From positions 1 through 47,323 of the forward strand of contig CAISYW010000080.1 of assembly GCA_903889795.1 (NCBI GenBank): 47,323 nt of DNA, given 5' to 3'. The translations under genes were made by a program, and so were the position numbers. Origin of the DNA: an uncultured Chlamydiae bacterium (GTDB lineage Bacteria; Chlamydiota; Chlamydiia; Chlamydiales; SM23-39). The number at the start of each line of letters is the position of its first letter. Positions within the stretch are counted from its first letter, which is position 1. Under the pieces are notes generated by a model. The model was given only the letters and a program-made list of their open reading frames with translations, was not told the origin of the DNA and did no database searches. This document shows, in pieces, positions 5,611-7,915 of this stretch.

Positions 5611-6030
5611 TCATCCTGGGTGCTGATTTCTTTGCAAATCAAGTGCTTCGCGGTATAACCAGCAACCTTTAATTTTTAGGAAAAGACTTTTTTCGGTAAA
5701 GGATGCATCTCGAAGTTTTTGCTTAAGGATTGCTCGAAATGTAACCGTTGCTCTGTTTGTTTCCTCATGAAAGTCGATGATTTTCAATCCCGTAAAATCA
5801 GTCATTTGAGAAAATGTGATAATATCTTTCTTCCATTCAACCGGATCAGAGATGGCGGAGTTGTTTTCTGGATGAGTCGTTCGAATGATATAATCGGCTA
5901 ATTTCAAAGCATAGGCAGAGTAGCGCGAGCGCATGAGAATCAGAGCATTCTCAGCGATAGCTCCATCATGGTACTTCTTGCAGCAATCCTCGTAGAGTTT
6001 TTGACTATGGCAGGGGCATTCTTTATTGAT
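5611..6030 (-). CDS. ychJ: YchJ-family protein (UPF0225, N-terminal SEC-C-like CPC...CC motif); probable non-canonical ATC start
   Basis: LMRSRYSAYA matches the YchJ core. The family's N-terminal Cys motif (NKECPCHSQKLYEDCCKKY) is encoded in frame upstream of the first ATG (5934). The frame is open only back to the TGA at 6034-6036. ATC at 6030-6028 sits 6 nt after AAGGAG (6042-6037). Confidence 0.7.
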   Translation of the reverse strand: MNKECPCHSQKLYEDCCKKYHDGAIAENALILMRSRYSAYALKLADYIIRTTHPENNSAISDPVEWKKDIITFSQMTDFTGLKIIDFHEETNRATVTFRAILKQKLRDASFTEKSLFLKIKGCWLYREALDLQRNQHPG

Positions 6031-6033
6031 CGA

Positions 6034-7842
6034 TCACTCCTTTCCAAAGCGGCCGAGTTTAGCCTCAGTCAGTGATAAAAGATCTTTTGATTTCATAACG
6101 ATCGATTCCGTTGGGAGTCCGCAGTTAAAGGCCGCTCGATCATTTTCCAAAATTCGATCATCGAAATAATTATCGAGATTGAGCAGATTACCAAATGGAG
6201 GTACCCCGCCGACGATCAAACCAAAGCGCTCCAGGATAATTGCAGGCTCTTCAAATTCGCATCTTTCACCCACGGCCTCTGCGCATGCTTTCATATCGAG
6301 CTTCATATGAGAAGAAATATTGAACTGATAATTCTTTTTACTGTTTTTTCCACGGAGGATGATTGCTTTAACACCTTCCTGGAGCGATGTATTGCGCATA
6401 CGTGCGGCGTCTTGCGAGGTGGGCGTCGCGTCATGAGTCTTATGATCGAATTCATAGTCGCGATGACGTATCTGGCGGATGATTTCATTGCGGATGTTTT
6501 CTCCGCCGAAGAAGATCTTGGCTTTGATGCGAACCCCGGCGATTCGTTTTGTGTCCGAAGGAAAGAGGGATGCTTCGCGCACGTTTTTCAACTTGAGCAA
6601 GGTCATCGTCAGTCGTTCCAATCCCATGCCAAATCCGCCATGGGGAGGCATGCCATACTTAAAAATACTCAGATAATCGGTGAAATTTTGCGGATCCATG
6701 CCCTTCATGCGGATTCCTTCGAGCATCGATTCATATGTATGGCGACGCTGGCCGCCCGATGTGATTTCCGTCCCCGCGCATATTAAATCGAAGGTGTTGG
6801 TCAATAGGGGATTTTCAACTTTCGGATAGGCATAGAAAGGCCGTTTTTCTGTTTTCCAATCAATGACAAAGACGAGGTCGGTTCCATGCTTTTCTTTCGC
6901 CCAGGCTGAGAGCTCTCTTTCAGCTGCCGGGCTTAAGTCGGGCTCATTACGTTCATCAATATGGGTTCGTTCATAGTAGATCTCTTGCGCCTGTTCGAAT
7001 GTGAGCCGGGGGAATGGAACGTTGTCCGGACAGGTGATGATGCTGTTCCCTAAAGCAGCCAGATCTTCTTTCGAGTGCTGATGGAGATAGTTTACAATGA
7101 ATTTTAGAACGCCTTCCTGAATGTCGAGGACCTCATGCCAATGATGAAAGAAGCCCATTTCAAATTCAAACTGTTTTCCTTCAGATAGATGGCGCGTTGT
7201 GTGCGATGGCTCGGCACGAAAAAAAGGCATTAGAGCAAAGACCCGCTCATTGACGCCAACCATGATTTGTTTGTAGAGCTGACTGCTTTGAGCCAATGTG
7301 GCTGTATGCCCAAAATAATCGACATTGAAAAACTCTGCGCCGCCCTCAGATGAGGCGCCGATCATGTTTGGAGCAAAATATTCACTTGCATCGACCGTAT
7401 CGTGCATATAAAGCCGGTAGGCATGAGCGATTTGGCCTTGAATCCGAAAAACGGCCTGCAGTTCGCGGTTGCGCAGCGCAATCGGGCGATTGTCGAGAAT
7501 GAAGTCCAGATCCGAGTGAATTTGCGGTTTATAATATTCGATCGGAGGAACTTCCTGAATCGGATTTTCTACACTGATTTTTGGGTTGATGATCTCGACG
7601 CCGATATTGGCTTCTTTCGATGCGACTGCTGTTCCAACAATTTGTAAAATGGAGCCGGGCTGCAGTTGAGCAATTTTTTGGTTTTCACTTTTATCTTCGA
7701 TCAGAATTTGCGATAGACCGCTGCGATCTCGCAAAATAAGGAATGTGAGCTTTCCAAAAGATCGGACGTTGTTCAGCCACCCGCGTAAAAGAACGGTTTG
7801 GCCGATGGAGCGATGCAAGTCTGACGATAATGTTCGTTTCAT
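6034..7842 (-). CDS. aspS: Aspartyl-tRNA synthetase, compact archaeal/eukaryal-type class IIb core, fused to a C-terminal YbaK/ProX-like aminoacyl-tRNA editing domain
   Basis: Core motifs: OB-fold (LRGWLNNVRSFGKLTFLILRD), LAQSSQLYKQ, motif 2 FRAEPSHTTRHLSE, motif 3 GGFGMGLERL, and FPSDTKRI. No GAD insertion is present. The last ~150 aa (about nt 6037-6480) carry YbaK-like signatures: THDATPTSQDAA, KAIILRGK, KLDMKA, GLIVGGVPPFG. Confidence 0.85.
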   Translation of the reverse strand: MKRTLSSDLHRSIGQTVLLRGWLNNVRSFGKLTFLILRDRSGLSQILIEDKSENQKIAQLQPGSILQIVGTAVASKEANIGVEIINPKISVENPIQEVPPIEYYKPQIHSDLDFILDNRPIALRNRELQAVFRIQGQIAHAYRLYMHDTVDASEYFAPNMIGASSEGGAEFFNVDYFGHTATLAQSSQLYKQIMVGVNERVFALMPFFRAEPSHTTRHLSEGKQFEFEMGFFHHWHEVLDIQEGVLKFIVNYLHQHSKEDLAALGNSIITCPDNVPFPRLTFEQAQEIYYERTHIDERNEPDLSPAAERELSAWAKEKHGTDLVFVIDWKTEKRPFYAYPKVENPLLTNTFDLICAGTEITSGGQRRHTYESMLEGIRMKGMDPQNFTDYLSIFKYGMPPHGGFGMGLERLTMTLLKLKNVREASLFPSDTKRIAGVRIKAKIFFGGENIRNEIIRQIRHRDYEFDHKTHDATPTSQDAARMRNTSLQEGVKAIILRGKNSKKNYQFNISSHMKLDMKACAEAVGERCEFEEPAIILERFGLIVGGVPPFGNLLNLDNYFDDRILENDRAAFNCGLPTESIVMKSKDLLSLTEAKLGRFGKE

Positions 7843-7915
7843 AGATAAACAGATTTGTTAGAAAAACTATGAGATTAAGATAAAAAGCAATTCGGTGCAA
7901 TTGCGAGTTAAGAAT

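Follow-up and report, generated by a model that had tools for sequence, protein, structure and literature searches.

The window analysed here is a 47,323-nucleotide stretch, contig CAISYW010000080.1, from the metagenome-assembled genome (MAG) GCA_903889795.1 of an uncultured Chlamydiae bacterium. At positions 6034-7842 it carries, on the minus strand, a single uninterrupted open reading frame (ORF) with an ATG start and a TGA stop that encodes a protein of 602 amino acids (aa). In this protein, an archaeal-type aspartyl-tRNA synthetase (AspRS) is followed by a C-terminal domain of the INS superfamily, which is predicted to be an aminoacyl-tRNA deacylase. An earlier note, made from the sequence alone, had read the gene in this way; the ORF is real, only its minus-strand orientation went unmentioned there. 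All motifs quoted in that note are found in the 602-aa protein: QSSQLYKQ at residues 185-192, FRAEPSHTTRHLSE at 208-221 (motif 2), GGFGMGLERL at 402-411 (motif 3), FPSDTKRI at 427-434, HDATPTS at 470-476, KAIILRGK at 492-499 and GGVPPFG at 545-551. The protein also has SGGQRRH at 362-368. The features of the gene are as follows:

6034-7842, minus strand: complete AspRS-ProXp fusion gene, 602 aa (ATG at 7842, TGA at 6036-6034; ORF listing)
7570-7794, minus strand: OB-fold anticodon-binding domain, residues 17-91 (Pfam PF01336 and alignments)
6553-7506, minus strand: class IIb catalytic core, residues 113-430 (Pfam PF00152, NF003483 and the match to 1n9w)
6478-6552, minus strand: junction, residues 431-455 (…KRIAGVRIKAKIFFGGENIRNEII; orthologue identity and AlphaFold2 pLDDT)
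6037-6477, minus strand: C-terminal INS-superfamily (ProXp-x-like) predicted aminoacyl-tRNA deacylase domain, residues 456-602 (PF04073, AlphaFold2 and Foldseek)
6367-6369, minus strand: K492, the conserved INS-superfamily lysine (alignments; role according to PMC11286415)
6196-6210, minus strand: GXXXP loop, G545-G-V-P-P549 (alignments; role according to PMC11286415)
6100-6435, minus strand: clade-specific conserved polar positions, H470 to S580 (alignments)

In a source MAG that is fragmented into 202 contigs, an error of sequencing, assembly or gene calling could have merged two neighbouring genes, and the earlier note had pointed to a frameshift or stop near the junction as the possible sign of it. 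We looked for such a lesion in independent assemblies and none is present. The gene is spanned by Logan contigs from four metagenome runs belonging to three studies, one of these contigs being identical over positions 6000-7900, and the contigs of more distant strains differ by base substitutions only, with zero indels and zero joints across the gene. Moreover, the same open frame is kept in about 97 genomes, and conservation along the protein is highest at the junction. The probability of an artefact is thus close to nil, and we regard it as ruled out for practical purposes. The architecture is real, conserved and previously undescribed: the full-text literature searched, in which Kuzmishin Nagy et al. 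(2020) was not included, holds no account of an AspRS fused to an INS/YbaK/ProX domain. Downstream of the gene, a SEC-C/YchJ-like ORF (5611-6042, minus strand) abuts the aspS stop codon.

Two domains and the linker between them

For residues 1-434, the assignment as an archaeal-type class IIb AspRS without the GAD insertion, which had been read from the motifs, is borne out by Pfam, NF003483 and the alignment of individual residues. Pfam assigns residues 17-91 to tRNA_anti-codon and residues 113-430 to tRNA-synt_2 (E 7.9e-68), and the scan of the 602-aa protein gives no match to the GAD domain (PF02938). The protein passes NF003483, the archaeal-type 'aspartate--tRNA(Asn) ligase' equivalog, over residues 1-434 (450.1 bits, cut-off 353) and stays slightly under the cut-off of TIGR00458 (352 against 368 bits). 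Among solved structures, the best relative of this half is Thermus thermophilus AspRS2, a non-discriminating transamidosome enzyme (1n9w/3kfu; E 2e-92, about 33% identity), followed by the AspRS of T. kodakarensis and S. tokodaii, and motif 2, motif 3, QSxQLYKQ and GGQR align with solved AspRS (1n9w, 3nel). Judged by these features, the AspRS half is most likely a complete, working and housekeeping-grade archaeal-type enzyme.

Thermus AspRS2 shares with this half the GAD-less class IIb architecture and the same motifs, and it is likewise an archaeal-type enzyme that occurs in a bacterium alongside GatCAB and, usually, asparaginyl-tRNA synthetase (AsnRS). In contrast, it ends where the linker of the window protein starts and lacks the deacylase domain. 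It is also the second enzyme beside a bacterial AspRS1, whereas the chlamydial fusion is the sole AspRS in most of its carriers. Two positions in the OB domain, W26/K85 in T. kodakarensis as opposed to H and P in Thermus AspRS2, presumably separate discriminating from non-discriminating archaeal-type AspRS. In the alignment, the window protein has N24 and N79 at these anticodon-discrimination positions and follows neither the W/K nor the H/P pattern; with Asn at both, we dropped the call of a discriminating or non-discriminating tRNA specificity from the two markers.

The C-terminal part has the fold of the YbaK/ProX superfamily, as had been proposed, and both the Pfam and the AlphaFold check are positive. 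PF04073 (tRNA_edit) matches residues 470-590 along its full length (model positions 1-122 of 123; E 7.5e-16; 58.8 bits against 25.5). An AlphaFold2 (AF2) model of this domain alone, based on a 39-sequence alignment, reaches a predicted local distance difference test (pLDDT) score of 94.8 and a predicted template-modelling score (pTM) of 0.88. Foldseek aligns the model with TM scores of 0.75-0.90 to 2cx5, 1dbu, 1wdv, 1vki and 2dxa, which comprise ProXp-x, YbaK, APE2540 and ProXp-ala-like proteins. The label 'YbaK/ProX-like' therefore holds for the superfamily but not for YbaK proper. The Cys-tRNA(Pro) deacylase YbaK (1dbu, 2dxa) shares the fold (TM 0.77/0.84) and the Pfam family with the window domain, which nevertheless fails the curated YbaK models by far (TIGR00011, 38.7 against 153.25 bits; NF007951, 18.1 against 243). 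By sequence, residues 434-602 are closest to TTHA1699 of T. thermophilus (2cx5; E 3.7e-8), with YbaK at E 0.005-0.04. TTHA1699 is a ProXp-x that deacylates Abu-tRNA (Abu, 2-aminobutyrate) and Ala-tRNA(Pro) and prefers A73 (PMC11295145).

All characterised members of the INS superfamily use a conserved lysine together with the GXXXP loop (PMC11286415), and both elements are kept in the window protein (K492; G545-GVP-P549). K492, P549, G551 and G575 are invariant across alignments of 86 and 39 sequences, and K492 and P549 even in free-standing relatives at about 30% identity. With these residues in place, the domain is most likely a catalytically competent aminoacyl-tRNA deacylase. Two fusion-derived C-domains, P0182 and P0192, are without the TPTS…ARVR segment and keep the lysine and most of the GXXXP loop, with its leading Gly substituted; their deacylase domain has either degenerated or diverged.

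ProXp-x is also the nearest relative by fold (2cx5/2z0k; TM 0.79/0.85), and both have the conserved lysine and a GGVPPxG loop. However, the window domain is only 29% identical to TTHA1699, and the clade that it forms with its relatives stays within 42% throughout. ProXp-x is a single-domain protein with a preference for A73, whereas the clade is coupled to AspRS and the tRNAs in question have G73 in this genome (tRNA-Asp, G1-C72 and G73; tRNA-Asn, U1-A72 and G73). The clade furthermore has conserved polar positions of its own (H470, T473, T475, S476, R483, N573, C574, E579 and S580, within TPTS, NCG and ES and at R483). At the readable positions of the alignment, TTHA1699 shows R-T for T475-S476, V for R483, A-A for N573-C574 and R-A for E579-S580. 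As a hint at the substrate, the conserved positions of the clade are polar where small or apolar residues stand in ProXp-x. These clade-specific residues presumably line the substrate pocket. Because of the low identity, the coupling to AspRS and the G73 of the partner tRNAs, the sequences place the clade as a sister of ProXp-x and not within ProXp-x itself. The same superfamily contains the clusters ProXp-7, -8 and -9, which have been termed uncharacterised (PMC11295145; PMC11286415). An INS deacylase of the same fold is also part, in cis, of a class II synthetase in bacterial prolyl-tRNA synthetase (ProRS) and in the protist ProXp-ala-ProRS fusions, ProRS chains matching our C-domain model in Foldseek with TMq 0.6-0.7. 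There, the domain is inserted or N-terminal and clears Ala-tRNA(Pro), whereas here it is C-terminal and sits on AspRS.

The two domains are connected by the most conserved stretch of the whole protein. Among 56 full-length chlamydial orthologues, mean pairwise identity is 62% in the OB domain, 83% in the catalytic core and 72% in the deacylase domain, and rises to 91% at junction residues 435-455. The segment is basic and hydrophobic (KRIAGxRIKAKIFFGGENIRNEII), and residues 427-442 have a low pLDDT in the full-length AF2 model. This pattern indicates that the deacylase domain and the linker are under strong purifying selection and that the linker is not a passive tether; the junction may dock on the catalytic domain, on the tRNA or on a partner.

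Distribution of the fusion and of its deacylase clade

To the earlier note the fusion seemed invisible in a product-name annotation, and this is the case. A search of 5.8 billion proteins gave more than 6000 matches, and the best 120, which we examined, are all about 600 aa long with the same three domains. Where these 120 carry a name, it is 'aspartate--tRNA(Asn) ligase'; those with a name come from Parachlamydiales, Chlamydiales, Simkaniaceae and (mis)binned Verrucomicrobiota. In an evenly sampled set of 301 Chlamydiota genomes, about 97 carry the fusion, defined as the domain within a frame of about 600 aa. The carriers are patchily distributed over many families. By TIGR00459, 228 of the 301 genomes have a bacterial-type AspRS, and the whole set divides by AspRS genes as follows:

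Fusion only: 66 genomes
Fusion and bacterial-type: 31 genomes
Bacterial-type only: 197 genomes
Neither: 7 genomes

The two types thus strongly avoid each other (odds ratio 0.017, p 4e-34, uncorrected for phylogeny). The fusion has displaced the bacterial AspRS in 66 of 97 carriers, and the two types replace each other over evolution. As the sole AspRS, it must supply Asp-tRNA(Asp) for all translation in these 66 genomes, which indirectly supports its aspartylation of tRNA(Asp). A spare second AspRS in the style of Thermus and Deinococcus was rejected as a general reading on the same count. With a bacterial AspRS present, the fusion can decay to relics, as in G188, which retains residues 321-506 and a frameshifted piece of residues 498-580, and in G170, which retains residues 536-602. 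A further fragment, of 76 aa (residues 526-601), lies about 1.1 kb downstream of an intact fusion gene in G073 (C1:141000-146500, L090) and looks like the relic of a partial duplication.

The view that Chlamydiae lack AsnRS, on which the earlier note had built its question, is true only of the approximately 1.1-Mb genomes of family f4, which we take to be the Chlamydiaceae. Of the 301 genomes, 258 have AsnRS (TIGR00457, above cut-off), among them the sister species G173, and so do about 93 of the 97 fusion carriers. The annotation 'aspartate--tRNA(Asn) ligase' therefore probably implies the wrong physiological role in carriers that contain AsnRS. Of 39 high-quality genomes in the window's family, 38 encode GatB, irrespective of their AspRS type.

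The genome of the window itself (1.57 Mb in 202 contigs, 83% complete) contains the fusion, a bacterial GAD-type AspRS, LysRS and GatB (on C183); matches to PF00587 look, by inspection, like ThrRS, SerRS, GlyRS and HisRS. The bacterial-type aspS, a second gene that had been suggested as worth looking for, is split over contig ends (C87:880-1416, C114:5-205 and C139:25833-26885), C87 and C114 being two near-identical strain variants of the N-terminus and C139 the C-terminus. In four samples its assembler depth follows the depth of the fusion locus, and C139 holds the only GlyRS of the assembly, so that contamination as its origin is unsupported and both genes probably belong to one population. 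As the only family member in the sample with both AspRS types, this genome may be a snapshot of AspRS replacement in progress. Neither AsnRS nor ProRS was recovered in the 83%-complete MAG, which gaps in the assembly probably explain. The fusion's C-domain is the only tRNA_edit domain found in the assembly; we dropped the idea that it replaces a missing INS domain of ProRS, since no ProRS at all was recovered. A further protein of 290 aa (C156:9167-9922, minus strand) consists of a class IIb catalytic core only (PF00152, E 4e-10) and has no anticodon-binding domain, NCBIfam family or PDB sequence match. It is perhaps a paralogue of the AsnA, EpmA or amino-acid-ligase kind.

The distribution of the fusion, which the earlier note had asked for, extends beyond the Chlamydiota to bacteria of the candidate phyla radiation (CPR). 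An exhaustive search with the C-domain among 1.84 billion representatives yielded 697 relatives; for 169 the E-value lies under 1e-10. They occur as free-standing proteins of 150-170 aa and as AspRS fusions, the latter in three groups: fusions to archaeal-type AspRS (P0219 and P0223 by Pfam, more by BLAST), fusions to GAD-containing bacterial AspRS (P0256, P0275, P0277, P0314 and P0338), and proteins of about 625-660 aa without a GAD match that look bacterial by best BLAST (P0221, P0249, L069 and L085). N-terminal extensions occur in 64 members. In 60 of them the partner is of AspRS type, and best BLAST hits make it archaeal-type in 47 and bacterial-like in 13; the remaining four have short, unidentified N-terminal parts, and none of the 64 is joined to another synthetase. 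Outside the Chlamydiota, fusions occur in Dojkabacteria, Saccharibacteria and Gottesmanbacteria (CPR/Patescibacteria), and free-standing copies in Paceibacterota, Kaiserbacteria, one Micrarchaeota archaeon and one Planctomycetota MAG.

We also read the gene context of five free-standing relatives, four of which were informative (the fifth lies on a 934-bp contig). One of these four begins just a few bases behind a bacterial aspS; in another, 1 bp separates its end from a following gene, which the AsnRS equivalog model accepts; and the other two have no synthetase neighbour. In the tree of C-domains, the chlamydial domains form one clade (SH-aLRT 99) beside a Dojkabacteria fusion. Outside the Chlamydiota, the AspRS half of that fusion is likewise the nearest relative (484 bits), which suggests that the fused gene passed as one unit between CPR and Chlamydiota. 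Well-supported branches need at least four archaeal-type and at least five bacterial-type changes of fusion state, counted conservatively as some 'free' rows may be truncated fusions. The deacylase clade has thus been coupled independently and repeatedly to AspRS or AsnRS genes. Five Paceibacterota/Kaiserbacteria genomes of 0.6-0.7 Mb (G335, G336, G337, G340 and G341, with loci L075, L076, L078, L081 and L083) show a single class IIb synthetase (about 450 aa) at E < 1e-20, besides GatB and a free-standing clade member. On this count they would have no class II LysRS and no separate pair of AsnRS and AspRS.

Candidate substrates and rival functions

Taken together, it is reasonably probable that the fusion couples an active deacylase to AspRS in order to clear a wrong aminoacyl-tRNA of the Asp/Asn system. 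A predicted deacylase, fixed to the C-terminus of AspRS through the conserved linker, would hydrolyse such a product and spare the correct Asp-tRNA(Asp); we infer a post-transfer deacylase that inspects the products of the Asp and Asn synthetases. As its substrate we would rank first the cross-product of the two systems, above all Asp-tRNA(Asn) that escapes GatCAB. It could arise from AspRS through a tRNA error or from AsnRS through an amino-acid error, and could be told from Asp-tRNA(Asp) via the acceptor stem (U1-A72 as opposed to G1-C72). The acceptor stem is also how ProXp-ala reads tRNA(Pro) (PMC10164551).

A non-cognate aminoacyl-tRNA(Asp) would rank second, for example D-Asp-tRNA(Asp) in lineages that have lost D-aminoacyl-tRNA deacylase (DTD). 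Outside family f4, DTD is present in 34% of carriers compared to 67% of non-carriers (odds ratio 0.25, p 1.5e-7). The three largest families all point the same way, with odds ratios of 0.065 in f1 (p 1.6e-4), 0.5 in f9 and 0.31 in f6, and the Mantel-Haenszel pooled value is 0.26. This anti-correlation is strong only in f1 and uncorrected for phylogeny, and 33 carriers keep DTD, so that the link to D-Asp-tRNA(Asp) is a weak lead. DTD was not found in the window's own, 83%-complete genome, and in G173, a sister species of the same genus, it is present as two half-length fragments (C41:14714-15004 and C1:63153-63458); the gene may be decaying in this genus.

Several points weigh against an editing function. 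AspRS is not known to mischarge so much that editing would be required. GatB is encoded in this genome and almost throughout its family, and among 16 non-chlamydial carriers 15 have it. Amidation could thus deal with Asp-tRNA(Asn) and make its hydrolysis unnecessary, and a cis deacylase for this species risks a futile cycle. On the same GatB counts we rejected the idea that Asp-tRNA(Asn) is a dead end in carriers without an amidotransferase. The conserved lysine and the GXXXP loop cannot tell binding of the aminoacyl end from its hydrolysis, because the INS mechanism relies on substrate positioning. In addition, the full-length AF2 model has a pTM of 0.50 with no confident domain arrangement, the catalytic core being poorly modelled from a shallow alignment, and access of the CCA end to the deacylase pocket in cis is thus a presumption. 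A synthetase review of 2020 does not count AspRS among the editing enzymes (PMC7373986).

Some of these points would suit a C-domain that binds the acceptor end without hydrolysing it, either to hand Asp-tRNA(Asn) to GatCAB as a transamidosome factor or to raise the affinity for tRNA, in the manner of extra domains on other synthetases. The closest solved AspRS, T. thermophilus AspRS2, is a transamidosome enzyme, GatB is nearly always present in carriers, the basic linker is extremely conserved, and several Paceibacterota/Kaiserbacteria genomes combine the free-standing domain with GatB and a single class IIb synthetase of about 450 aa. Plant ProXp-ala likewise binds tRNA more strongly through an appended domain (PMC9425024). 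However, with AsnRS in about 93 of 97 chlamydial carriers the indirect route is unneeded for translation, and members of this clade are also joined to bacterial AspRS or lie beside an AsnRS gene. Moreover, the catalytic features typical of an active INS deacylase are all invariant, and a pocket that holds the ester in such a geometry is expected to hydrolyse it. We consider a purely binding role unlikely. A general trans-editor of the ProXp-x type, which removes Abu, Ala or other small residues misattached by ProRS, ValRS and others and is merely tethered to AspRS without a particular tie to Asp or Asn, appears quite unlikely to us as well. Such a role would agree with the broad tRNA specificity of ProXp-x, the nearest characterised relative (PMC11295145), and with the sole tRNA_edit domain in this assembly, an argument of little weight given that ProRS is unrecovered in an 83%-complete MAG. 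In contrast, all 60 identifiable fusion partners are AspRS and the synthetase neighbours are aspS or asnS, never another, which is hard to reconcile with mere tethering. The low identity to TTHA1699, the clade's own conserved polar residues and the G73 of tRNA-Asp and tRNA-Asn, as opposed to the A73 preferred by ProXp-x, point in the same direction.

Meaning for Asp/Asn decoding

AspRS is regarded as accurate enough to do without editing, and accounts of the INS superfamily centre it on ProRS, with single-domain proteins as its other members. Against this background, an INS-type domain is joined to AspRS in about a third of the sampled Chlamydiota and is often part of the cell's only AspRS. 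The pattern implies either that the decoding of Asp and Asn meets an undescribed problem of accuracy or that Asp-tRNA(Asn) is handled in a new way, and it is likely that this decoding includes a step of quality control so far overlooked. Current annotation hides the extra domain, and the fusion makes a still uncharacterised branch of the INS superfamily accessible to direct tests.

A more far-reaching version of the deacylase reading, which we put forward only tentatively, is that AspRS belongs, so far unnoticed, to the editing synthetases in host-dependent lineages, namely the non-Chlamydiaceae Chlamydiota, the CPR bacteria and possibly DPANN, in which a dedicated INS clade would hydrolyse an error product of the Asp/Asn system. 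If this is true, a role would be found for the free-standing members of the clade, and one more synthetase would join those that proofread after transfer.

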